Below the pieces are notes generated by a model. That model saw nothing but the letters and a program-made list of their open reading frames with translations, was not told the DNA's origin and did no database searches. 64,000 nt of DNA from a virus. This document shows positions 52 to 63,450 of this stretch, piece after piece (the first letter of the stretch is position 1; each line of letters begins with the position of its first letter). Where the stretch lies: the IMG/VR virus record IMGVR_UViG_3300042114_000045, positions 1-64,000 of that record. One strand, 5' to 3'. The translations under genes were made by a program, and so were the position numbers.

Positions 52-1776
52 TTAACATTCAAGACTACTAATGTCATCTTGTGTTTGTTTTTCTACAGTA
101 TTATATCCTATACTTGCTGTATCATCGTTTATGTCAAACATACCTTTAGCTAATGGTTCTTCATCCATATAGTTCATTGTATACTCAGCAGACTCAAACA
201 ACACTCTTCGTACTTCTTGTATCGATGAACCAGTCACGTACCCATTAACAGCTTCAGTAATAACTTTCTCGGAATACATACTTTTTTTACCTGTTAATTC
301 TTTTACCTTGCTAACAAAAGTATTATATATATCTTCTGATAAACCATAATGAATACTGTTATATAGTTTTTCACTATCAGTATTTTTTACAATAAATGAA
401 CCAACTCTAGCATCTTTATGAACTTCAGTTGAATTAGCGTTATAATTACCATCAACGTCTACCGAACCTTTATCGATATAGTTAGTTTTGCTAAAACTTT
501 TCATACCGATATAATATGTTTTAACAAACTCTTTCCAGTTTATCCTATTGGTACTTTTATTAACCACTTTTAGCTTCTTATCTAATAATATACTTGGTAT
601 ACTGCTTTGTTTACTGTTAATATAATCAGCTAACATTGAAGCTTCTGTTGGTGAATTACCATACTGTTTTTGTACGAATACTGCATTATCAAGTTCACCA
701 CTATTTAGTTTTTGTCTAATAAGTGATAACTTACTTTCTACAGCTTTGTTAATTTTATAACCTTCTGGTATACCTTTTTTCAACCAATAAATAAACTGTT
801 TGTTCATTTTTAACTTCTCTTTATCATCTTTTGTAAACGATGCAAATGGGTTACTATAAACAGAACCTTTACCTATTCTAACAATAGTATCTTGTGTACC
901 CAGATTCAACGGTGTTAACTCTTTACCTTCAACAGCTACATCAGACTTGATTGCAATAGCAGATTCTTTATCACCAAACGTAGCATTATAAGCATCCTTA
1001 ATAGCGTTAATTGCATTTATAGCTTCCTTCTCATTATATTTACCGTGTGGTGCAAATACAATTTTACCGTTACCGTCTTTGGTAGGTTTGCTAAAGTCAC
1101 TAATATCCCTTGTACCAATACCAGCAAAGTTTTGAGTTAGCGTTGGAGCAGCGTCTAACTTATCCCATACACTCTTGTCTGTATCTACGTTCTCGTAGTT
1201 CTTTTTATACCATTGATTATCACGTGGTGAAAACACAAATATTGGTTTACTAGCTATCGTAGCCATTGCTACTGCGTATCCAGTACCACCATTAACAAAT
1301 TCACCATCCAATTCAGCTACCGCGTACACCGCATCAGAATTTGATACCTGTACCCAGTTTCTAGCAAGTAATCCAATTGTATACGAGTTAGTAGCGAATT
1401 TCTTATCTCCGTTAAGAAGTTTATGTGCACGTTTAGCCATTCTTACACCAACGGAATATTCGTCATCAGTTATTTCAGTATTGCCTTCTGAAGGTTTTGA
1501 TTTGTCAGAGTTACTTTTATAATAATGGTTTGATGTAACCCCAAAGGCTTTACCTATATCTCCCCAATATGTATCAGCTCCTAAAGCTCCACCGCTATGG
1601 TTTACAAACTTACCAGGAGTAGTAGTCTTCCTATTTCCATCAGCAGGTATAGCACTTGTAAATCTAGTAGTGTATTCACCAATACTATTAAGTATCGCTT
1701 TATCTTTATCTGTCATACTCTCCATAGCTACTAAGCTATCGAGAGATTTAATAAATTCTTCAATTATACAAGCCAC
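52..1776 (-). CDS. Putative ejected virion protein with a SLOG-like domain plus a DUF4326-like domain
   Basis: Motifs HSGGALGAD, GGTGYAV, FAGIGTR (SLOG-like) and IGKGSVYSNPF (DUF4326-like). Likely start is GTG at 1776 (AAGGA SD; TAGTG overlap with the vRNAP stop), giving MACII... Confidence 0.6.
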   Translation of the reverse strand: MACIIEEFIKSLDSLVAMESMTDKDKAILNSIGEYTTRFTSAIPADGNRKTTTPGKFVNHSGGALGADTYWGDIGKAFGVTSNHYYKSNSDKSKPSEGNTEITDDEYSVGVRMAKRAHKLLNGDKKFATNSYTIGLLARNWVQVSNSDAVYAVAELDGEFVNGGTGYAVAMATIASKPIFVFSPRDNQWYKKNYENVDTDKSVWDKLDAAPTLTQNFAGIGTRDISDFSKPTKDGNGKIVFAPHGKYNEKEAINAINAIKDAYNATFGDKESAIAIKSDVAVEGKELTPLNLGTQDTIVRIGKGSVYSNPFASFTKDDKEKLKMNKQFIYWLKKGIPEGYKINKAVESKLSLIRQKLNSGELDNAVFVQKQYGNSPTEASMLADYINSKQSSIPSILLDKKLKVVNKSTNRINWKEFVKTYYIGMKSFSKTNYIDKGSVDVDGNYNANSTEVHKDARVGSFIVKNTDSEKLYNSIHYGLSEDIYNTFVSKVKELTGKKSMYSEKVITEAVNGYVTGSSIQEVRRVLFESAEYTMNYMDEEPLAKGMFDINDDTASIGYNTVEKQTQDDISSLEC

Positions 1777-4700
1777 TAACAATCCTTAAATGAGTTTACT
1801 ACGTTTGTTCTTATCTGTTTAAAGTTTTTTAACACAAACTTTTTAATATTATCTGATAGATCACTATCTTCAATATACGTATTTAATTCAGTAATTATAT
1901 CATAGTTATCTTTAGTATCTGCTTTTTTAGCTGTACCTACTTCAACAGCTCTATCTAATTTCTCTAACGCTTTTTCTATGATAGACACTTCATTTTCAAC
2001 GTTATCTGTAGCAAATACACCAAATCTTCCTTCAGGTAATGTTCCTGTCCAATTTTCGTCGGTATTGGAGTTATACCCAGTCATATCATCAGATATATAG
2101 TATTGTTTCATAACTATAGGAGTTCTAGCTAGTTGTCTTCTATCATCGTGCGTATTTCTCAATATCTGTAATACATCACTTGGTTTTACAATAGTTTTAT
2201 CATTACCTATAATTCTATTGAAGTTATTACTAACCATTTCAGCCAAATATGAATCAGCATCGATAGTACTAAATACATCAGGATTTCTACCGATAGTATT
2301 CAATAGTCTACCAACTGCTTCACCCAAACTACTATGATTCATATTTAACTCATAAAATGATTTATTCATTTGGTTGATTTGTTTATTATTCAACTCACTG
2401 TTTACACCAAGTACCAACGCATCAAATATATTTAATGTTTTAGTAGTGTGAGCATCAACCATTGTACTACCATCTAAACTATGCTTATCAGTAACTCCAA
2501 TAGCTCCAACGTTAGAAATAACCTCTTTTATTATTCTGTTAATGTTAGATATATTAGCTCTACTTTTATTAGATTGAAATTGGTTACCACCTATAACGAC
2601 TTGAATCGTATCTTCGGTATTTTCATTTTGTGTTTTGTAATAGTCTTGTAACCCACCTAATGAATTAGTTGCTGCGTAATAACTACCTTCGTCAATCATC
2701 TCTTTCAATATATCCGTAAGTTTATCGTCTGTAACACCACCTAGTTTTGAACTATTGTTGAATGCTACTAATTTATCTTCTAATATTTTCTTAAACGCAA
2801 CAAAGTTTAGTTCCTCAACTACTTTGTGTGCTATTCTAAACTTGTTAATATCATTAAAACTATCGTCGAATGCTTCTTCTAATTGATTACCAATAGCAAT
2901 AGTAACAGCTGAACCTACGATTTCTAGTTGCCCTTCTGATAGAAAGTATTTAGTTGAACCTTTGCTAGCAGGGACAAGTTTTAACTTATCTGTTTTTTGA
3001 TCATACTCATATGCTACTAAGTTTCTCTCGTTAAGTAATACGAATGCTTTATTTATAACTTCTTTATGACTATCATTAGTAGAATTAACACTACCTAATA
3101 GCTCTTTTAATTTATCAATCTTACCAGTCATTATTGCTTCTTTTGCTAGGTTGTATCCTGCAACTTGTTTTATATTTCTTACACTTGATCCGTAGATAAA
3201 CACCATTACTAAAGGTTTTAGAAACGTTCTCCATTTACCACCAATAATACTCTCAACTAAAACAGACATATCAGTAGCTTCGTTGCTTGCACTTAAAGCA
3301 TCAATAAAAGCTTCTTTAGGAGTTTCGTATATATCTTGTTTCCCACTATCTTTAAACTTACCATGAGACATATCTGAAGTTGCATTTTCTCCAACATACA
3401 TACCGGCTTTTTCATATAAGTAACTTGAAGTCCTACTTAATCCCATCTGTAATAACGTAGATGCCATACCATTTGTTATACCGTCAGCCTCTAACGCTAA
3501 GTTTGTAGTAAACTCTTCACCAACAGTCATAGCATATACCGCTTCTAGTGCTTGATGGATATGCATTATATTTTTTGCTGTACCTTCAATATGACTATCA
3601 CTTTGATTATCTACAGCATTTCTAAGATCGTATAGAGATACTGGTTTTACTTCACCTGTTACTTTATCAACCATCAATGCTTTTAAATAGTCACCTAATT
3701 CAGTTGCAACTTTTCCGTTCTCATCGATAGTAAATTTAACGTACTTCTCTAAATCTTTAATTACTTTCTCATCTAACTTTTTATCTGGTCCGAGCTCTAA
3801 AGCTTGAGCGATAGCTAGTTGCATATGTAGTAAATCACCTTCTGTCATATTAGAAGGATTAATAGTGTAGTTCATATCGTCAAGACTAACTATAAATCTT
3901 GATAGCTTACTGTTCTGAGGATTAATCCAAGAGTTATCAATCATACTTCTATTACTTACAGTATAATCCCATTTTAAAAAGAAATCTTTATCTTTAACTA
4001 AAGAGTACGTATCTAGCATTCTATCAATATCTAATGCATCAGCTGTATATGCAGCTTTAGTTTTTTCAAACTCTAAAGGGTGTACACTACTTAACATTGT
4101 AGTTCTACCACCAAGTAAAATCTGTTTAAATTCATACTTAACAGCATTATCAATAGCTTCTAGTAACGCATCTTCTCTGTCCTCTTTTGAGTCAAAGTTT
4201 TTGTCAGCTAATGATGTAGCAGCTTTTTTTGTCGCAATTTTAAGTACATCTTCATACTGTTTTTTGAAGTCACTACTAAATTTCCAAACCATCTTACCTT
4301 GTGCATTTAAGTAGTCTACAGCTTTTTTAGCGATACCGACCATACTATTTCTAGTAGTTGAATCATCTTTTCTATCTTTTATAGGACTAGTATCTATAGT
4401 AGCTTCTTTATCTTCAGCGGCAAACTCAAATACACCACCCATATTTGATATAGCACCATCTGAAACTTCGTAGTTTGTAATAGTACCGACACCAAAGCTT
4501 AGTATTTTAGTTACACGAGAGTTTCTTGCACCATCAGCACTCTCATTAGTTATAGCACCTGTACTAGAGTCACGTACTAATACTTCTCTAACAATACCAT
4601 TATTGTTTGCACTTCTTGTTGCAGTTAACGCGTTGTAGATAACCAGTTCACCTAATGCAAGTTGTGTATCAAGAACATACTGACCTGTAACATCTCCAAA

Positions 4701-7700
4701 GGTTATCTCTAACTGATTTAATAGCTCTCTACCAGCGTCTAGTACATATGTACTTGTAGGAACGTATTTACCTTCTCTTATATCACTAACAATTTTATCA
4801 ACCTCATATGTATCAGGAAACTCACCAATAGTATTGACGAAAGCACCTTCTACGTATTCCCTAATATCATTATCACTTTTATATCTAATTTCTTGCATAC
4901 TTTTTAATGTAAGTATTGTAGCCATGTTAAGAGCAGATTTAACAATATCTCTAGTCTCACTATTTGTTAGTAAGTCATTGAAAGAACTACCACCAACCAT
5001 TGTAGCTAACCCATTAGCTATTTCAGTACCTTTTTGGTTAGTAATATTAATATCAGCTCTATTATCCGTAAATTTTTTAAACTGTTTTATAGCTCTTCTA
5101 ACTTTTACAACACCAGCTTTACCTGAGTCTTTAATAACATTCGGCATTAACGGCATTAAATTATTAACTGCATTTTTTAGTGAAACATTCTCGTTAACTT
5201 TATTAGTCTTATCGACAGCTAATTGGTTAAGAATTTTACTCATCTTACTAGCAATTTGTTCTGGTCTACTACTGATATCAGAGTCAACTATACCTGGTAT
5301 AGTATTACTTATAGCTATTCTATTTGGAAACTTTTCAGCATAAATTGCTTTTTTCAATTCCTTAACTTCGTCTTTAAAGTTACGTATTTGAATAGCAGTT
5401 CTATTACTAGTACGTACTTTATTTTCTCTCAATGTAGCGTTAGCTGCATGCAAAGCTCTTTCTTGCTGTCTAATATCTCGTAATACTTCGTCGTAGTTGT
5501 AGATGTAACTTCTTATTCTGTTAATCGTATTTCTAGTTCTTGTAATAACACCTTTGTATGCAGTATAGCTTCTTCTAATAGCACCTAAAGCACCTTTGAA
5601 TAATTCTCTAACAATCTGTTTTGCACCTGTTGATGAGTTAAGTAATGCTTCTAATTCATCAAACTTACCGAAAGCTTTAACTAGAGTAGCTTCTGATTTT
5701 TTAATATCGTTTCTTGCTTCTTTAATTTTATTTGTAATAGCAACTTTCTTAGACTTAAGTTCACTTAGTGCTTTATTGTTATTTCTAACACTAGCAGCAA
5801 TCTTTTTATTAATCGTAATAGCTGCACTAAGATCTTTCTGTAAGTCATTTAAGTTATACTCAACAGCACTAAGATTTTCTTCAAGTATCAATAATTTACT
5901 AGTAGCATCTTCAATGTTATCACTAATAGTACCTGCGTTATTATCTACAAGTACCTCAGATACATCAGTACCAAATGAAGATAAATCTATATTTGTATCA
6001 GTACCCTCTTCTACAGCTACGTCATTGTAGAAACTATCTGGTGGTGTGTTATCATCCACAGTAGGTACTTCTTCAGTACCAGTATTATCTACGTTATTTT
6101 GATACGAATACCCTTCATCATCATAAGTATACTCACCATTTTTTATATCACTATAATCTGCGTCATTGATCCCAGCTTGAACTGGAGCAGCTATAGTACT
6201 TTGTTTTGTAATGATGTCCCCATTAGCATCTAATTCATAATCCTCGTAAGATTCATCAACTTGATCTTCATAAAAATTATCGTTAGAGTTACTAGTTGAC
6301 TTTCTTACTATATCACTAGGGTTAATACTTTTAACAAACGATGTACCATCAGCTTTTGTAACTTCAACATCTACGTTGCCAATTACACTAACAGATGGTC
6401 CAACTAACGTACCTGTAGCTTCTTTATCACCGTATGAGTATACAACTCTCGAACCAATACCAAATCTATTAACAGCAGCCATAGAATTTTCATTTGTATA
6501 AGCTCTTTTAATTTCATTGTCAACGAAAACTTTCTCACCAGCACCAGCAACTGCAGTAATTAAATCTGCACCAGTTAAGCTAAGTAAGTGTTTATAATCG
6601 TTAATTGAAGCATCTAATGACTCTAACGCTTTTGTTAATTTAGTTCTAGTCTCATCTGTAAGGTTAGTACTAGTTAACGAAGTAGAAGCAATATTTTTTA
6701 ATTCAACTGTTTCATCTAGTCTTTTTTCAGCTAGCCTTTTAATAGAAGACGTTGATCTAAGAGTTCTTGATATAACATTACCTTTTTCATCTTTTACTTT
6801 ATCTACTGCATTAAGTAAATTGATACCTCTTGATTCAGCAAAGTTAATAAATTTATTAAGAGCAGATGCATTTGAATCTTTCATACTTGGTATATTATCA
6901 GATTTTGATATAGCTTCCATATCTATAGCGTGGTCTTTGATACCTTTGTACCAAGTTTTACCTAGTGCGTATCCGTACTGTGCCTCTAATTCAACGTCTT
7001 CAATAGTTTTTTTCTTAGGAGGTTTACCACCATTACCACCGATTTCATTGTTACCTAATACAGTCTCCATAGCATTACCTAATTTGTCTAATGGTTCACT
7101 ACCGAATGATTGCATAGTTGCAATAAGTTTTGCTAAACCAGCTAACTCATTGTCTGGTATCTTATCAGTATCAATATTAATACCGTGTTTCTCTTTTAAG
7201 TTAATAAATTTCTCTCTTAATTTATCAGAGAACATATCAGTTACTTCTTTTTCAACAAATTTATTACCTTTGAAAGCAGACATAAGAGTTTGAATAATAT
7301 GGTTTGATTCACCTTCAGAAGCTCTTTGATTTCCATTAGTACTAGAATCTTTACCATGTATCCATTCACCAAGTTTTTTAGCAACTTGACCAGCTATAAC
7401 TTCTTTACCTTCAGTAGTAGCCACTCCGTACATTTTTGAAACCATATCAGTTGTATCTTGTACAGCTTTAACGTTATTACCGTGCACAGCTGCAACATTA
7501 TTTATACCAGCTTTTATGTCTTCAGCAGTAGATGGCTTATCTTGTAAACTTTTGTAAGCTTTTAATGTACTATCAGCAGCACCTCTAATAGCAGCATCAA
7601 TAACAGTACCTTTGTGCTCCTCTGGGATATTTTCTGCGCCTACTGTTTTTACCATATTCATAATAGAATTTCTACCAGAACTTAATTCTGGGTCAACTCT

Positions 7701-9521
7701 ATTGAATATATAATCAGCATATTCTTTCTTTAGCTTACTACCTTCTTCATTATGTGCAATTAATTCGTCACCAGTTTTTACTAAACCAGCCTTGTAGTTA
7801 TCATTAATTTTTGTAGAAAATTCAGATGCAACATCATCAATAAACGAAGTATCTCTTTTACTATCTAGTATATCATAAGGAGTTCCAGCCATAGCCATAG
7901 CAGCACCTGCGTGATGACCTAACACACCTTGTACAGCTAAGTCCAATCTTTCATTAGCATTAAATAACTTACTCTCATTCTTAGTACCGTACTCTTTACC
8001 TACGTTTTCAGCAGCACCTTGTATAATCTCTTCGATTCCTTCGATAGCACCACTTTTACCGATATGATGTAGTCTATTTTTTACTACTTCCCAAGTTCCT
8101 TTATCTAATGCTTTAGCTAGTTCAGCTACTTCTTTTTTAGTCTCATATAAACCAGCATTACCGCCAGTAAATCTATTTACAACTCCATATACAACAGAGG
8201 CAGCAGTAGCGATAGCGTAGTCTTTAAACCCTAGCGGTTTACCATCAGCAGCTTCTTTTCTCTCGTCAAGTATGTTATTCATTTCATTAGCTATGATTAC
8301 ACCAGTACCAACGTATTTACTAGCCCCACCAATTATGTCACCAATACTAGTTGCTAGTACTTCAGGAGATTGCATAATACCTTTTGCAGTAACTGCAATT
8401 TTATCTAGTACACTAGTATCATTAGAGTTCCACACGTTTTTAAACGCTTGAGAGTAGTTTGACACACGTCTATCATTATAACCATAAGTAGTCATATCTT
8501 TATACTTATCAAAGTATTTGAAGTCTCCGTCTTCTGTAAAGTACTTTCGTAGCTCTGGTGCTTTATCCAAACTATGTTTGAACGTATTTGTAACTTCTGC
8601 ATCTGACATACCAGTAGCCATTGCTACTTTCTTTCCTAAGAACATTCCCGCATCGGCTACAACATCTGCAGCACTGAATAGAGTTTTACCTACTGAACCT
8701 GCGGCTCCGTGTGCAAGATTAGTAAGGTAATTACTATCTTCAATATTTGCACCACGTAATTTAAACTTAGATTCCATCTCATCAGCTGCATTTGGATTAG
8801 CCCATAAACCAACTTTATTATCTCTTGCTTCTTTTCCTACATTAAGTAAGTCACTTTTAAACTCGGTATATGGTACAGCATAACCTTTACTAATCATGTA
8901 TTTAGCATACTCATCGTTTTTAATTAAAGGTCTACCGAATTTATCGTTAGTGCTGTATGAGCCTTCTTTATCTAACGACACATTAGTTGCTGCAGATTGA
9001 CTATCATTAAATGAGGTTACTGACGCACCGGTATTAGTAAGGATATTTGGTCCAGTATCATTAACAGACGTTAAATACCCTTCCATAGTAGCAATTTTTC
9101 CACCAGAAACGTTAGCAGCATCTTTATCGCTATACCCAAGACCGTTTGCAGCAGTATCGGAAGCAGCTTTTATTGCATTATCAAAGTCTTTTATTTTCGT
9201 AGCATCAGTAGTTTTAGCTCTTAAAGCTAATAGTTTTTGTACCCTACCTTCAGCAAGTTGTTTCATTTTATCGGATGAAGTAGCTACTAAAGTGCTTTTC
9301 GCTACTTCAGGAGTATCCATACCAAGAATCCTATATCCTTGGCTATGAATCTTACCAGTAGAATCTTTATGTATTCTGTAAGGTGAGTCACCATCATGAA
9401 CTACGTATTCTGCGTTTTCAGGTACTGGTTCAATACCCATAGTTTTATTAGTTAGCTTTATGTAATTATCGAGTTGTGCGCCTTTAGTAGCATTGCCACC
9501 TGCAAATTGTGTACTTGTCAT
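1776..9521 (-). CDS. Virion-encapsidated RNA polymerase (N4 gp50-like vRNAP) with an N-terminal SNase/thermonuclease domain
   Basis: 2581 aa; motif A LEADGITNG, motif B RTFLKPLVMVFIYG, motif C IFDAL; nearly Cys-free like N4 vRNAP; N-terminal DGD..RILGMDTPE..DKFGR..ARDNKVGLW. Confidence 0.9.
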   Translation of the reverse strand: MTSTQFAGGNATKGAQLDNYIKLTNKTMGIEPVPENAEYVVHDGDSPYRIHKDSTGKIHSQGYRILGMDTPEVAKSTLVATSSDKMKQLAEGRVQKLLALRAKTTDATKIKDFDNAIKAASDTAANGLGYSDKDAANVSGGKIATMEGYLTSVNDTGPNILTNTGASVTSFNDSQSAATNVSLDKEGSYSTNDKFGRPLIKNDEYAKYMISKGYAVPYTEFKSDLLNVGKEARDNKVGLWANPNAADEMESKFKLRGANIEDSNYLTNLAHGAAGSVGKTLFSAADVVADAGMFLGKKVAMATGMSDAEVTNTFKHSLDKAPELRKYFTEDGDFKYFDKYKDMTTYGYNDRRVSNYSQAFKNVWNSNDTSVLDKIAVTAKGIMQSPEVLATSIGDIIGGASKYVGTGVIIANEMNNILDERKEAADGKPLGFKDYAIATAASVVYGVVNRFTGGNAGLYETKKEVAELAKALDKGTWEVVKNRLHHIGKSGAIEGIEEIIQGAAENVGKEYGTKNESKLFNANERLDLAVQGVLGHHAGAAMAMAGTPYDILDSKRDTSFIDDVASEFSTKINDNYKAGLVKTGDELIAHNEEGSKLKKEYADYIFNRVDPELSSGRNSIMNMVKTVGAENIPEEHKGTVIDAAIRGAADSTLKAYKSLQDKPSTAEDIKAGINNVAAVHGNNVKAVQDTTDMVSKMYGVATTEGKEVIAGQVAKKLGEWIHGKDSSTNGNQRASEGESNHIIQTLMSAFKGNKFVEKEVTDMFSDKLREKFINLKEKHGINIDTDKIPDNELAGLAKLIATMQSFGSEPLDKLGNAMETVLGNNEIGGNGGKPPKKKTIEDVELEAQYGYALGKTWYKGIKDHAIDMEAISKSDNIPSMKDSNASALNKFINFAESRGINLLNAVDKVKDEKGNVISRTLRSTSSIKRLAEKRLDETVELKNIASTSLTSTNLTDETRTKLTKALESLDASINDYKHLLSLTGADLITAVAGAGEKVFVDNEIKRAYTNENSMAAVNRFGIGSRVVYSYGDKEATGTLVGPSVSVIGNVDVEVTKADGTSFVKSINPSDIVRKSTSNSNDNFYEDQVDESYEDYELDANGDIITKQSTIAAPVQAGINDADYSDIKNGEYTYDDEGYSYQNNVDNTGTEEVPTVDDNTPPDSFYNDVAVEEGTDTNIDLSSFGTDVSEVLVDNNAGTISDNIEDATSKLLILEENLSAVEYNLNDLQKDLSAAITINKKIAASVRNNNKALSELKSKKVAITNKIKEARNDIKKSEATLVKAFGKFDELEALLNSSTGAKQIVRELFKGALGAIRRSYTAYKGVITRTRNTINRIRSYIYNYDEVLRDIRQQERALHAANATLRENKVRTSNRTAIQIRNFKDEVKELKKAIYAEKFPNRIAISNTIPGIVDSDISSRPEQIASKMSKILNQLAVDKTNKVNENVSLKNAVNNLMPLMPNVIKDSGKAGVVKVRRAIKQFKKFTDNRADINITNQKGTEIANGLATMVGGSSFNDLLTNSETRDIVKSALNMATILTLKSMQEIRYKSDNDIREYVEGAFVNTIGEFPDTYEVDKIVSDIREGKYVPTSTYVLDAGRELLNQLEITFGDVTGQYVLDTQLALGELVIYNALTATRSANNNGIVREVLVRDSSTGAITNESADGARNSRVTKILSFGVGTITNYEVSDGAISNMGGVFEFAAEDKEATIDTSPIKDRKDDSTTRNSMVGIAKKAVDYLNAQGKMVWKFSSDFKKQYEDVLKIATKKAATSLADKNFDSKEDREDALLEAIDNAVKYEFKQILLGGRTTMLSSVHPLEFEKTKAAYTADALDIDRMLDTYSLVKDKDFFLKWDYTVSNRSMIDNSWINPQNSKLSRFIVSLDDMNYTINPSNMTEGDLLHMQLAIAQALELGPDKKLDEKVIKDLEKYVKFTIDENGKVATELGDYLKALMVDKVTGEVKPVSLYDLRNAVDNQSDSHIEGTAKNIMHIHQALEAVYAMTVGEEFTTNLALEADGITNGMASTLLQMGLSRTSSYLYEKAGMYVGENATSDMSHGKFKDSGKQDIYETPKEAFIDALSASNEATDMSVLVESIIGGKWRTFLKPLVMVFIYGSSVRNIKQVAGYNLAKEAIMTGKIDKLKELLGSVNSTNDSHKEVINKAFVLLNERNLVAYEYDQKTDKLKLVPASKGSTKYFLSEGQLEIVGSAVTIAIGNQLEEAFDDSFNDINKFRIAHKVVEELNFVAFKKILEDKLVAFNNSSKLGGVTDDKLTDILKEMIDEGSYYAATNSLGGLQDYYKTQNENTEDTIQVVIGGNQFQSNKSRANISNINRIIKEVISNVGAIGVTDKHSLDGSTMVDAHTTKTLNIFDALVLGVNSELNNKQINQMNKSFYELNMNHSSLGEAVGRLLNTIGRNPDVFSTIDADSYLAEMVSNNFNRIIGNDKTIVKPSDVLQILRNTHDDRRQLARTPIVMKQYYISDDMTGYNSNTDENWTGTLPEGRFGVFATDNVENEVSIIEKALEKLDRAVEVGTAKKADTKDNYDIITELNTYIEDSDLSDNIKKFVLKNFKQIRTNVVNSFKDC

Positions 9522-49462: not shown

Positions 49463-50608
49463 TCAACCTCCTCTTCTAACATTATAGGTAATTCTTGTAT
49501 CTTCACCATACTCTCTATCATACACAATACACTTCATAGTTCCTGCATTTCTACCAAATCCAGCATCAGCTGCCCAAGCATTTAAAGGTGCAATATTTCT
49601 ATGACTCTCAGCTTTACAAAGTCTACCATCATATATAGCATCTTTATGGATATGACCAAAATGGAAATACCTCTCTTTAGTAGTACTCCAGTTAGCTTCA
49701 TTATGCATCGCCATAACTTCTCCAGAATGGCCCATCTTTAATCCATCACCATGTGCAAAACCTAACAACGTTCTACCAAATTGGTAGTATTTTTGTTTAG
49801 CAGGAGATTCATCAACTATAACACCTTCATCATTTCTAAACCATGCAGACACAAATGCAGTAATAGCATACCCAGTAGTTATATCGTGGTTACCACTTAT
49901 ATTAATAAACCTAACAGTATTATGTTTTGTTAAAGCTTTCTCAATAAAGTATCTCATACATTCCATAGCAACTTTCATTACCTTTGGATATCTTCCATCA
50001 GTATCTAGTATATGCCCACTCTTAGGTGTCATATTTTTAAGGTCATCTATCTCAGTTAAATCTCCAAGATCAACAACAATACATTCTTCAGTAGATGGAG
50101 CTCTCTCAACTAACTCATCAATAGCAAGTTTTAATTGAGTCTCAGCTATAGACAAATCCCAATCACTGTCCCTAGTTTCAGGACCCCACATTAACGCACC
50201 AATATGTACATCATTTGATATATAAACAGGAAGTAAATCAGTTCGTGTATTTTGTACTCTTGGTAACTGTACATGTGAAGATCTTAAAGAACCAAGTAGT
50301 TCTAATATGGCAGTCTTAGCTGCATCAGCTTTACTATTACCAGTCTCTTTAACCCATTGTAGTTTAACATTACCTTCTCCATCAACCAATGTAGATGTTC
50401 CAGTAGTTATAGCCATAGTTGGTTTAACACCAGAATACAAACTTAGTATATCTTCTCTTGTCTTATACAAATACCAGTTGTTAATTCCATACTTCAGTCT
50501 AACATTTCTAGTAGCTCTTTTTCTTTCTCTGGGATCGGCAATCATCAGTGCCTCTGCTACTTCTTTTAATTCTTCTTTACTCCAGTTATCGTATAACGCC
50601 ATGAGCAT
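49463..50608 (-). CDS. Calcineurin-like metallophosphoesterase
   Basis: D.HIG, LGD, GNHD, HGD, GH.H motifs. Confidence 0.8.
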   Translation of the reverse strand: MLMALYDNWSKEELKEVAEALMIADPRERKRATRNVRLKYGINNWYLYKTREDILSLYSGVKPTMAITTGTSTLVDGEGNVKLQWVKETGNSKADAAKTAILELLGSLRSSHVQLPRVQNTRTDLLPVYISNDVHIGALMWGPETRDSDWDLSIAETQLKLAIDELVERAPSTEECIVVDLGDLTEIDDLKNMTPKSGHILDTDGRYPKVMKVAMECMRYFIEKALTKHNTVRFINISGNHDITTGYAITAFVSAWFRNDEGVIVDESPAKQKYYQFGRTLLGFAHGDGLKMGHSGEVMAMHNEANWSTTKERYFHFGHIHKDAIYDGRLCKAESHRNIAPLNAWAADAGFGRNAGTMKCIVYDREYGEDTRITYNVRRGG

Positions 50609-50629
50609 CCTTTATTAGTAATTTTACTA

Positions 50630-50651
50630 ATTATACTTAAAGTAGTCTTAA
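50630..50651 (-). promoter_or_regulatory. Late promoter for the phosphoesterase-terminase operon
   Basis: TTAAG-N11-TATAAT. Confidence 0.55.
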
Positions 50652-50658
50652 CTTTATC

Positions 50659-50680
50659 TTAAAGGTATATCTGCTATAAT
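50659..50680 (+). promoter_or_regulatory. Divergent plus-strand promoter
   Basis: TTAAAG-N7-TGCTATAAT, perfect extended -10. Confidence 0.55.
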
Positions 50681-50685
50681 ACACT

Positions 50686-50734
50686 ATAAGTACGGAATAG
50701 TCATACACGACATAATTAACTGTGCTTATCTTTT
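50686..50734 (+). ncRNA. Candidate ~50-nt hairpin small RNA
   Basis: Begins 5-6 nt after TATAAT; ATAAGTACGG pairs with CTGTGCTTAT (two G-U pairs), followed by CTTTT. Confidence 0.4.
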
Positions 50735-50801
50735 ATTAACTAACAATGATACTAAATCTGATTTTTTCATATTATCTATATTAAATACTGAAGAGTTTAA
50801 A

Positions 50802-50875
50802 TGGTTCGGATATAGAGAATCGAACTCTAACCTCAGCTTCCCAAAAGCCGTGTGCTACCATAACACTTTATCCAA
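50802..50875 (-). tRNA. tRNA-Pro(TGG)
   Basis: Cloverleaf, loop TT-TGG-GA, encoded CCA. Confidence 0.85.
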
Positions 50876-50878
50876 ATA

Positions 50879-50954
50879 TGGTGCTACCAACAGGGATCGA
50901 ACCTGTGACACTAGGATTTTCAATCCTATGCTCTACCATCTGAGCTACAATAGC
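50879..50954 (-). tRNA. tRNA-Phe(GAA)
   Basis: Loop TT-GAA-AA, CCA; three G-U pairs in the acceptor stem. Confidence 0.85.
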
Positions 50955-50955
50955 A

Positions 50956-51032
50956 TGGTGGAATATATCGGATTCGAACCGATCACCTCTAGCGTGCAAA
51001 GCTAGCGCTCTACCAAAATGAGCTAATACCCC
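50956..51032 (-). tRNA. tRNA-Ala(TGC)
   Basis: Loop TT-TGC-AC, G3-U70, CCA. Confidence 0.9.
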
Positions 51033-51042
51033 TTATAAAAAT

Positions 51043-51119
51043 TGGTTGTTCCATAAGGACTTGAACCTTAAACCTCTCGATTATCAACCGAACGCTCTGA
51101 CCAATTGAGCTATGGAACA
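51043..51119 (-). tRNA. tRNA-Ile(GAT)
   Basis: Loop TT-GAT-AA, CCA. Confidence 0.9.
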
Positions 51120-51121
51120 TT

Positions 51122-51197
51122 TGGCACTCCTAATCGGATTCGAACCGATATGAGCTCCTGGAAAGGGAGCCATCCTAAACCATTAGATGATAGGAGC
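51122..51197 (-). tRNA. tRNA-Glu(TTC)
   Basis: Loop CT-TTC-CA, G discriminator, Glu-type D arm, CCA. Confidence 0.8.
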
Positions 51198-51199
51198 AT

Positions 51200-51273
51200 T
51201 GGCTCTCTAGGTAGGTATCGAACCTACGACTTCCCTTTAACAGAGGGATGCTTGACCTTCAAGCTACTAGAGA
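51200..51273 (-). tRNA. tRNA-Asn(GTT)
   Basis: Loop CT-GTT-AA, CCA. Confidence 0.9.
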
Positions 51274-51274
51274 A

Positions 51275-51351
51275 TGGGGTAATCGACGAGACTCGAACTC
51301 GCAACATTCAGGATCACAACCTGACGCCTCTACCATTGGGCTACGACTAAC
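51275..51351 (-). tRNA. tRNA-His(GTG)
   Basis: Loop TT-GTG-AT, C discriminator, CCA. Confidence 0.85.
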
Positions 51352-51358
51352 ATAAATT

Positions 51359-51442
51359 TGGTGCGGAAGGAGAGACTCGAACTCTCACGCCTTTCAGCAC
51401 TGGTTTCTAAGACCAGATTGGCTACCATTACAACACTCCCGC
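51359..51442 (-). tRNA. tRNA-Leu(TAG)
   Basis: Loop CT-TAG-AA, long variable arm, CCA. Confidence 0.9.
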
Positions 51443-51443
51443 A

Positions 51444-51517
51444 TGGATCGAGGACCAGGGTTCGAACCTGGATTCGCAACTTCAAAGGCTGCTGTCCTAC
51501 CATTAGACGATCCTCGA
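51444..51517 (-). tRNA. tRNA-Gln(TTG)
   Basis: Loop CT-TTG-AA, CCA. Confidence 0.85.
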
Positions 51518-51520
51518 ATA

Positions 51521-51596
51521 TGGAGCTCAATATCAGAATCGAACTGATTATCTCCTGGTTACAAATCAGGCGCTTCGCCAGCAAAGCTTATCAAGC
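51521..51596 (-). tRNA. tRNA-Thr(TGT)
   Basis: Loop TT-TGT-AA, CCA. Confidence 0.85.
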
Positions 51597-51609
51597 ATAT
51601 TATATAAAT

Positions 51610-51641
51610 AAAAAAGGGCAGAACCTTTCGATCCTACCCTT
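51610..51641 (-). terminator. Intrinsic terminator (attenuator) between the leader peptide and the tRNA array
   Basis: AAGGGTAGGATC-GAAA-GGTTCTGCCC-TTTTTT, ending about 13 nt before tRNA-Thr. Confidence 0.8.
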
Positions 51642-51664
51642 CTAAAGATGAACTGTGTATAAAA

Positions 51665-51766
51665 CTATATACCAGTAACCTCAAAAGGGCACAGACACGT
51701 CTCGGCATTAAACGCCGGTAGCTGATGATTAATAATATTTACATTATGTAGTTGTGCTATTGCCAT
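51665..51766 (-). CDS. Leader peptide of the tRNA operon (MAIAQLHNVNIINHQLPAFNAETCLCPFEVTGI)
   Basis: AAGGA SD 6 nt before ATG; 33 codons; stop about 22 nt before the terminator; not in the ORF track. Confidence 0.7.
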   Translation of the reverse strand: MAIAQLHNVNIINHQLPAFNAETCLCPFEVTGI

Positions 51767-51797
51767 GTCTGTTCCTTATTTATTTTATATTTGAGTA

Positions 51798-51819
51798 ATT
51801 GTACTATTAATATGCTTTA
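51798..51819 (-). promoter_or_regulatory. Promoter of the leader-tRNA operon
   Basis: TAAAG-N11-TACAAT, the same class as the other late promoters. Confidence 0.55.
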
Positions 51820-51857
51820 ATATACCTTAAATCTGTGTAGTATACAATAGACTGTAA

Positions 51858-52928
51858 TTATACAAGTTCATTAGCAATTTTTCTTACTACATTCATGGCT
51901 AATACTTCACCACTATCAACTGCAGCTTCATACAATCTATATAAAGGTACAACTTTCATGCCATACATACCAACAGCGTTAGCCCACGCATAAGTACCAT
52001 CAACACAGTTATTAACATCAAAAGAATCTTGAATATGACATAGTACTCCGCTATCTTTATCAACAGCTTTTAAAATAATATCATCAACACTATTACATTT
52101 CCTTCTTCGTCTAAATTCTACAACAGCTTCTTTAATAATATTTTCCTCAAGCGTAGAGTAGTATGTACCATACACTATATGTTTAACCATAAACACCCTC
52201 TCTGTACTCTTTAAAGTCTTTCCTTTAACATACATTGGAATAATAGTGTAAACACTGTACACGTAGATATTACCTTTCTTATATAAGAACTTCTCACCAA
52301 ATCTTAATATACCAGACGTATTAGTAAGCTTACCTCTATTAATATAAGCTATTACACATTCCCTAGCATCTCTATAACTCTTCGGTGAATAGCCTATCCT
52401 AATTGAGTAAGCAACCATTGCAAGTTTACCAACACTACAAGTTACACCAACTATACCTATAGCTTCTAGTATATTTTCAAAAGACAACACTATATTATGC
52501 CGTGCTATACCTACGTCCCTAGTACTCCATATTCTATTTTCAATACGTCTAATACTATTATTACTAAAAGCTTTATAATCAATCAGTTGTTTACCAGTTG
52601 ATAAGCCATTATACCCTCTACCGTTATTACTTCTTTTACCAATAGAAGCTAGAGCTGATAGCCTAGTACCAGTATACCCATGTACTACTAGCAACCTAAA
52701 CAACGTAGTTCTTAACTCGGTAAACAATTTCTTACCTGCGTCTGTGTCATTAATACTTTCACCAACATATATACCACTAGTCATTCTATGAACATTAAAT
52801 ATATTTGGAGCTAATCCTAAAGCTGCGGCAATCTCTTCTAGTGTGTCAGCCTTTGTGTATAAATTAACGTATCTTAATACTTCATCACATAGTATACGTC
52901 TGTTGAGTACCTTTTTAACGATCCACAT
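51858..52928 (-). CDS. Hypothetical protein
   Basis: 356-aa ORF in an operon; C-terminal DS....NC..GT..W motif. Confidence 0.55.
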   Translation of the reverse strand: MWIVKKVLNRRILCDEVLRYVNLYTKADTLEEIAAALGLAPNIFNVHRMTSGIYVGESINDTDAGKKLFTELRTTLFRLLVVHGYTGTRLSALASIGKRSNNGRGYNGLSTGKQLIDYKAFSNNSIRRIENRIWSTRDVGIARHNIVLSFENILEAIGIVGVTCSVGKLAMVAYSIRIGYSPKSYRDARECVIAYINRGKLTNTSGILRFGEKFLYKKGNIYVYSVYTIIPMYVKGKTLKSTERVFMVKHIVYGTYYSTLEENIIKEAVVEFRRRRKCNSVDDIILKAVDKDSGVLCHIQDSFDVNNCVDGTYAWANAVGMYGMKVVPLYRLYEAAVDSGEVLAMNVVRKIANELV

Positions 52929-62924: not shown

Positions 62925-62994
62925 TGTACATTTAGCTCAGTTGGTAGAGCGTCTCGCGAGGTGTCGTTGGTTCGAGTCCAACAATGTACAACCA
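62925..62994 (+). ncRNA. tRNA-like RNA lacking an anticodon loop
   Basis: Perfect acceptor TGTACAT/ATGTACA-A-CCA, canonical D and T arms; anticodon arm reduced to TCTC-GC-GAGG. Confidence 0.75.
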
Positions 62995-63371: not shown

Positions 63372-63450
63372 TATAGCTATAGTTTAACTGGGTAAAACCG
63401 TCGACATTATGGAGGCAAGATATAGGTTCAAATCCTATTAGTTATGTCCA
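63372..63450 (+). ncRNA. tRNA-like RNA with an irregular anticodon arm
   Basis: Acceptor, D arm GTTT..AAAC, T arm ATAGG-TTCAAAT-CCTAT, CCA; no canonical anticodon stem-loop. Confidence 0.6.

Follow-up and report, generated by a model that had tools for sequence, protein, structure and literature searches.

The window analysed here, 64,000 nucleotides (nt) long, is the first 64 kb of IMG/VR virus record IMGVR_UViG_3300042114_000045 (122,779 bp, 34% G+C, about 91% complete). On its minus strand lies an array of ten tRNA genes, preceded by an intrinsic terminator and, ahead of that, by a 33-codon open reading frame (ORF), here called the leader; the features are collected in Table 1. A first-pass annotation, made from the sequence alone, had read this arrangement as his/trp-type attenuation of the tRNA genes. 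The block lies within a long minus-strand run of genes, which passes from ORFs of 155, 136 and 356 amino acids (aa) with no family assigned, through the leader and the tRNAs, to a DNA-repair-type exonuclease, then a 250-aa protein and finally the large terminase. ARAGORN and Rfam agree on the ten tRNAs and on the order first proposed for them: Thr(UGU), Gln(UUG), Leu(UAG), His(GUG), Asn(GUU), Glu(UUC), Ile(GAU), Ala(UGC), Phe(GAA) and Pro(UGG). The tRNA genes are spaced 1-10 nt apart, and tRNA-Thr begins 15 nt past the terminator stem, a gap in which no sigma-70-like promoter fits. The strong terminator expected before the tRNAs was recovered by a terminator scan. The promoter proposed ahead of the leader (TACAAT) was not: it is absent from the seven promoter-like sites found, a number that itself approximates the shuffle expectation of 5.8. 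Across 50500-52100, at E values up to 1, Rfam returned the tRNAs, Plastid-ycf2 look-alikes on the tRNA antisense strand and an sbrA match of 19.2 bits (gathering score 45) that we judge to be chance, and it identified no known regulatory family in the leader region.

Table 1. Leader, terminator and tRNA array, in window coordinates
Feature	Positions	Strand	Basis
Shine-Dalgarno sequence AAGGA, 6 nt ahead of the leader ATG	51773-51777	minus	read in sequence
Leader ORF, 33 codons plus TAG: MAIAQLHNVNIINHQLPAFNAETCLCPFEVTGI; codons 2-21 are the putative sensor part	51665-51766	minus	sequence, composition
5' strand of start-codon helix, pairs with 51699-51691 (codons 23-25)	51764-51772	minus	folding
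Antiterminator 5' arm UGCCCUUUUGAGG, within leader codons 26-29, a copy of the terminator 3' arm	51679-51691	minus	folding
Antiterminator 3' arm CUUUAGAAGGGUA; 51643-51635 common with the terminator 5' arm	51635-51647	minus	folding
Intrinsic terminator: 14-pair stem, GAAA loop, T-run to 51610, then ATTT	51612-51643	minus	terminator scan; -19.5 kcal/mol
Ten-tRNA array	50802-51596	minus	ARAGORN and Rfam

The leader ORF, its predicted peptide and its AAGGA Shine-Dalgarno (SD) motif were confirmed, and the ribosome-binding site has the form usual for this phage: AAGGA at 6-nt spacing is the commonest start arrangement in the genome (15 of 77 long ORFs), and an SD-like 4-mer precedes 62 of the 77 long-ORF starts, compared with 175 of 2000 random places. 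The exact peptide has also been gene-called on two JGI/IMG contigs in a protein collection. Its composition matches the array. In the leader, 27 of the 32 residues after the initiator belong to the array's ten amino acids, which make up 53.8% of residues in 82 long ORFs (binomial P 2.9e-4); in codons 2-21 the share is 19 of 20. K, S, D, R and Y, jointly about 29% of the proteome, are missing. Among 169 ATG ORFs of 28-40 codons in six frames, the leader is the sole one to reach its in-set fraction together with all ten amino acids; none of 6128 small ORFs pooled from the genome and related loci equals it, and likewise none equals the leader of the relative L003 described below. The compositional match is therefore above chance. 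The additional suggestion that the run Q-L-H-N repeats the order of the tRNA genes did not hold up, being reached by 281 of 20,000 shuffles and having no counterpart in L003. By codons, the array reads 22 of 32 under strict wobble and 25 of 32 if U34 reads whole boxes (expected 0.36 and 0.46, P ~2e-4). The leaders of the window and L003 contain five Leu codons between them, each of the CUN type and so fitting tRNA-Leu(UAG), in a genome whose Leu codons are 53% UUR.

The attenuation reading is supported by leaders matched to their own arrays in two relatives with different tRNA sets, together with structures that compete with the terminators. Relatives were anchored on the large terminase, which is about 55% identical to N4-like podophage terminases (481 records, all below 60%); on the basis of this identity, the phage is a large, distant N4-like virus. 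The 166 terminase-anchored loci came from IMG/VR and metagenomes, with some contigs in both collections, and all were scanned for tRNAs. Arrays of at least four tRNAs occurred in four of them (L003, L009, L168 and L082). Searches for closer relatives gave little: megablast returned only a 45-nt tRNA match, tblastn with the upstream 356-aa protein returned zero matches, and a pattern search of IMG/VR for close relatives returned zero matches, with none for the exact leader 30-mer. A variant of the 356-aa protein is present on one 20.8-kb contig. Sequence patterns from the tRNAs were dropped as search anchors, as same-isotype tRNAs of the window and L003 agree at just 43-63 of 74-84 positions.

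L003, whose terminase is 74% identical to that of the window, carries tRNAs for Asn, Phe, Asp, Thr, Leu, Tyr, Trp, Glu, Gln, His and Ser. A 126-nt gap in the array is filled by a twelfth gene, a tRNA-Ser(UGA) at 3753-3836 (plus strand) whose variable arm is long. ARAGORN reports this gene only with its thresholds at 90%, Rfam does not find it, and it would read the UCN codons of the L003 leader. That leader, MRTTTTSTSTQHLHDWFQDSYSYNETNNYFIL, stands behind the same AAGGAAC-N6-ATG as in the window, and 29 of its 31 residues belong to its own set. Every one of the 11 amino acids is represented, even the rare Trp; this leader uses D, W, Y and S and lacks Ala and Pro. Counting Ser(UGA), 29 of 31 codons fall in boxes served by the array, with P ~2e-7 at an expected fraction that is only approximated as 0.50. 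In L009 (49% terminase identity) an array of His, Gln, Ser and Ile lies behind the leader MKSITALLNSQQHIEPSPSEGSVMAIA and a terminator, and 11 of the 26 leader residues belong to the set.

The three leaders cannot be aligned with one another, and their arrays differ yet occupy the same position. Every leader favours its own set (P 2.9e-4 for the window, 3e-6 for L003 and 5.9e-3 for L009), and all six cross-matches are non-significant (P 0.13-0.65). Residues that discriminate between sets (A, P and I against D, Y, W and S) are split 10:0 in the window and 1:10 in L003 (Fisher 3.4e-5). When 98 tRNA sets from unrelated viral arrays were substituted, the number fitting as well as the own set was one for the window, none for L003 and one for L009. 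Leader composition thus covaries with tRNA content among non-homologous leaders, as an attenuator that reads its own array would have it. The first-pass annotation had named homologous arrays with no leader, or with a match no better than chance, as grounds for refutation; at L003 and L009 the result went the other way.

The folds of the window point the same way. The first-pass annotation had proposed a mutually exclusive antiterminator spanning the stop codon, and this structure is contained in the minimum free energy (MFE) fold of 51800-51597, which has a z of -6.3 and is matched in stability by none of 200 shuffles; it shares 9 nt with the 5' arm of the terminator. The duplex of the antiterminator 5' arm with the terminator 5' arm is worth -13.8 kcal/mol, a value reached by 26 of 1000 shuffles. 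The full antiterminator hairpin (51692-51635) is worth -24.6 kcal/mol, against -19.5 for the terminator, and its inner hairpin loop holds the stop codon. For transcripts ending at 51635-51621 the MFE structure is the antiterminator, which is completed before the terminator. When only RNA 3' of the ribosome is modelled, the terminator has a probability of 0.05-0.67 with the A site at codons 2-20 and of 0.68-0.96 from codon 21 onward. The stretch in which 19 of 20 residues are in-set (codons 2-21) therefore coincides with the positions at which stalling leaves the antiterminator arm free. The leader's out-of-set residues C24, C26, V30 and G32 sit where the RNA arm dictates the codons. No anti-antiterminator (1:2) or pause hairpin appears in the folds, where the only 5' helix joins the start codon to codons 23-25. 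This helix leaves the antiterminator arm free, and the predicted default without translation is therefore read-through, unlike trp; from the folding models, it may also limit re-initiation. An analogous helix in L003 pairs the SD and AUG with codons 14-17.

Complementarity between leader and terminator exceeds that of shuffled sequences in all three loci (26/1000, 0/1000 and 29/1000, the window giving 26 and L009 0). L009 is the cleanest structural case. Codons 15-22 of its leader are complementary to the terminator over its entire length (-44.6 kcal/mol versus -16.3 for the terminator alone). In both models the terminator probability is 0.00 through codon 14, still only 0.00-0.02 at codon 15, and 0.93-0.95 once codon 16 is reached; if both sides are allowed to pair, it drops to 0.32 at the last sense codon and 0.00 at the stop. 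The run S-Q-Q-H-I, containing all four rostered amino acids, occupies codons 10-14. At 6137-6173 (plus strand) of L009, a TTGACA-16-TATACT site (11/12) ends 7 nt ahead of the leader ATG, which suggests that the leader may be translated from a leaderless mRNA; the ATG also overlaps the stop of the preceding ORF (ATGA). L003 is a less clear-cut case. There a 21-pair hairpin (-21.6 kcal/mol) begins directly after the stop codon and overlaps a weak terminator, which forms in the models only once the ribosome has reached the last codons (0.67-0.77), with a probability of 0.22 when it is at the stop. The models thus place a leader-linked hairpin in competition with the terminator at all three loci.

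We consider it likely that a ribosome-mediated leader-peptide attenuator of the trp/his type controls the phage tRNA array by gauging how the array's codons are decoded. In the following scheme we infer that the leader is translated and that its translation is coupled to the polymerase, and likewise the kinetic order in which the RNA folds and the direction of control. Transcription would enter from upstream of the leader, and a ribosome would load at AAGGA-N6-AUG and translate the 33 codons while the polymerase proceeds. Delay of the ribosome in codons 2-20 would leave codons 26-29 free to pair with the first-made half of the terminator, giving read-through into the tRNA genes. A ribosome that reached about codon 21 or beyond in time would cover the antiterminator arm, and the terminator would form and turn the array off. 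Without translation the array would be read through by default. The phage would thus probably make its tRNAs when ribosomes read the array's codons slowly. Because the products are tRNAs that speed decoding of the same leader codons, the circuit would close as negative feedback and act as a gauge of decoding capacity.

Several observations weigh against this proposal. With the full terminator present, the two window states lie about 3 kcal/mol apart and the terminator state is favoured (0.94 without a ribosome); most ribosome-masked states also favour the terminator when both sides may pair. In the model restricted to RNA 3' of the ribosome the folds switch near codon 21; at equilibrium the terminator wins. 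The window switch must therefore be kinetic, acting during transcription as in classical attenuators. Phages of the N4 type rely on polymerases of their own during part of the cycle, and a fast single-subunit polymerase, if it transcribes this region, would couple poorly to ribosomes. The 15 nt preceding tRNA-Thr are AT-rich and could contain an unrecognised phage promoter. The leader offers only 2-4 codons per amino acid, versus the long runs of hisL and pheL, and sensitivity to a mild shortage would therefore be low. Two of the four Ile codons in the window leader are ATA, unread by tRNA-Ile(GAU), and the strict count is 22 of 32 overall; the match to the array is therefore no better at the codon than at the amino-acid level, and by the strict count it is poorer. 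The L003 terminator is weak (-9.4 kcal/mol, U6, uncalled by the scan), and a third hairpin (-13.9 kcal/mol) also competes with it. Among the other terminase-anchored loci, the best ORF of L168 is unremarkable, with 23 of 98 sets fitting equally well, and the array of L082 extends into uncalled tRNA-like sequence that leaves its start undefined. No leader ORF was found before this genome's own small Met and tmRNA/Ser clusters.

For a broader survey, the tRNAs of 119 IMG/VR loci with three T-loop motifs at tRNA spacing were divided into 459 blocks. Of these, 98 held a minimum of four tRNAs and four amino acids and had 120 nt or more of upstream sequence, and for each the best ATG ORF in that sequence was scored against its own and all other sets. 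No overall own-set excess emerged across the 98 (Wilcoxon P 0.74), the own score exceeding the mean of the other sets in 25 of them, a further point against a general device. Six blocks beat every other set, compared with about one expected (P 5e-4), and not all six are independent lineages. These blocks (L267, L262, L202, L188, L223 and L266) each have a strong terminator between ORF and tRNA, and the end of the L262 leader likewise copies the terminator 3' arm. The leaders of L202, L223 and L239 share an ending (…GMS) and, judging from their sequences, look like one family whose middle residues vary with the tRNA set. The layout of ORF, terminator and tRNAs was found again in unrelated viral contigs. 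No leader was seen at L116 (a single tRNA-Pro), L041, L058 or L108. On this sequence evidence, the device appears to be real in a minority of phage lineages; it is not universal.

We note several neighbouring features as observations in their own right. In L082, two further tRNA-like sequences lie upstream of the six called tRNAs at about 893-1100 (minus strand), one with a CAT anticodon loop by eye. The window's genome encodes a transfer-messenger RNA (tmRNA) outside the window at G000 80012-80341 (plus strand), with the ARAGORN tag ANNVNYRSAQFVRVAA and a match to Rfam RF00023 at 75 bits, above the cut-off; immediately after it come tRNA-Ser(UGA), an odd tRNA, a further tRNA match and tRNA-Ser(GCU). 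Plus-strand matches to the tRNA model also occur at 62926-62990 (65 nt, seemingly without a normal anticodon arm) and at 63372-63450; to one of these, not the 65-nt one, ARAGORN assigns a four-base anticodon (tatg). A 2581-codon ORF at 1776-9521 (minus strand of the window) may, considered beside an N4-like terminase, encode a virion RNA polymerase.

A stronger version of the proposal, which we regard as possible but doubtful, would make the leader a ten-input sensor of tRNA integrity for counter-defence: loss of any one rostered tRNA, to a host anticodon nuclease or to host tRNA decay during infection, would stall a single ribosome and open the terminator, replacements would be made until decoding recovers, and leader and array would co-evolve gene by gene. 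Array content does shift in this way between strains. Contigs from other samples carry the joints 51032>51122 and 51199>51275 (X15) and 51198>51275 (X9), which excise precisely tRNA-Ile (51033-51121) and tRNA-Asn (51200-51274), so that single tRNA genes are gained or lost. Rewriting of the leader after such changes is suggested by the comparison of the window with L003 and L009. Among the differences listed for leaders on other-sample contigs, A2T (51763) retains an in-set residue, and L6 CTA>TTA (51751, X7 only) keeps the residue in-set with a codon that is now beyond tRNA-Leu(UAG). A host anticodon nuclease, host tRNA decay, a poor host tRNA pool, amino-acid shortage and plain feedback are all candidate readings of the trigger, and our data do not separate them.

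Outside attenuation, the alternative that survives best is ordinary punctuation, in which the terminator closes the unit before it (the genes for the 155-, 136- and 356-aa products, together with a small ORF that has no regulatory meaning), the tRNAs are expressed by leaky read-through or from an unrecognised phage-polymerase promoter, and the leader's composition is luck. The promoter scan identified none for the leader, an N4-like phage could use promoters that are not of the sigma-70 type, the equilibrium fold of the window favours the terminator and most viral tRNA blocks lack a leader. We nonetheless think punctuation unlikely: luck has to contend with the absence of any match among the 6128 control ORFs and with two relatives that independently carry own-set leaders in the same position before different tRNA sets, the complementarity to the terminators exceeds shuffles at all three loci, and just 15 nt separate the window terminator from tRNA-Thr. 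Improbable, too, is a post-transcriptional role, in which ribosome position on the leader would set processing or stability of the tRNA precursor, through access of RNase III, E or P to the long hairpin by tRNA-Thr, and not termination. It would suit L003, where the terminator is weak and the 21-pair hairpin right after the stop is the dominant structure, and the window, where the first tRNA lies 15 nt from the structure; against it, the terminators of the window and L009 are canonical, with hairpin and U-run, and the competing helix overlaps exactly the terminator 5' arm, a signature of termination control. That the small ORF encodes a functional micro-protein, its composition set by the protein's needs, is very hard to credit despite the good ribosome-binding site and the gene calls on two contigs, given that the three leaders share position and architecture and no sequence, that composition follows the adjoining tRNA genes and that the non-set residues of the window leader lie where the RNA arm constrains the codons.

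The reason why phages carry tRNAs has been debated for decades between codon compensation and counter-defence, according to the accessible text of PMC10264068, in which the regulation of phage tRNA genes is undiscussed and promoter and terminator are mentioned zero times. A survey of viral tRNA clusters mentions no attenuators, leaders or terminators (PMC6409571), and our full-text searches, with subscription journals and supplements outside their scope, found no literature on leader-peptide control of tRNA genes. The regulation of these genes is largely uncharted. A roster leader, if the attenuation reading is correct, would mean that the phage monitors how exactly those codons are decoded and produces tRNAs as needed, and the question of why phages carry them would become testable by asking which shortage opens the switch. 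For annotation, a roster ORF followed by a terminator and a tRNA block would be a recognisable signature that also marks co-transcribed tRNAs. For synthetic biology, the locus would offer a compact natural multi-input sensor of the state of translation.

The nearest case, an accessory tRNA array that responds to translational trouble, is the trn operon of Anabaena sp. PCC 7120, described in the accessible text of PMC8421152 and PMC10272220 as holding 26 tRNA genes that stay off unless translation is impaired. Regulation there acts on the promoter by way of direct repeats and the repressor TrcR, and the accessible text of PMC8421152 is without the words attenuat-, leader and terminator. The two systems would be alike in activating an accessory array when translation falters, and differ in that the Anabaena operon is controlled at the level of the promoter. 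Small ORFs can also serve as readouts of tRNase damage: Barth et al. in 2021 reportedly found that cleavage of tRNA-Cys by VapC4 in M. tuberculosis is read out by stalling in small Cys-rich ORFs. Phage tRNAs replace host tRNAs cut by anticodon nucleases or retron effectors, as described in the accessible text of PMC10264068 and PMC11555353. Together, the counter-defence tRNAs supply a motive for a sensor of tRNA shortage, and the VapC4 case supplies a precedent for its small-ORF readout.

T-box riboswitches, which regulate genes for aminoacyl-tRNA synthetases and related genes, detect uncharged tRNA directly. Like them, the window would exert terminator/antiterminator control keyed to the state of specific tRNAs. 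Unlike them, it has no match to the T-box covariance model (Rfam, 50500-52100), and sensing here would pass through a translating ribosome and take in many tRNAs together.

The closest likeness is to the amino-acid attenuators of enterobacteria, among which trpL, hisL, pheL and leuL are accompanied by multivalent leaders such as those of thr (Thr and Ile) and ilvGMEDA (Ile, Leu and Val). Leader-peptide systems are discussed in general terms in the accessible text of PMC2965389. The phage locus has in common with them a short ORF rich in regulatory codons, a terminator before the regulated genes, an antiterminator that shares a strand with it, more than one amino acid per leader and, as we propose, a decision made by ribosome position. 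It differs in being phage-borne, in having tRNAs and not biosynthetic enzymes as its products, and in rostering ten amino acids (11-12 in L003 and 4 in L009) by 2-4 codons each instead of runs. As the folds contain no 1:2 anti-antiterminator, the untranslated state is predicted to be read-through and not super-attenuation. The output would, moreover, feed back directly on the step that is sensed. If our reading is correct, classical attenuation would be extended from enzymes to tRNAs, with the regulated product acting on the very step that the leader monitors.

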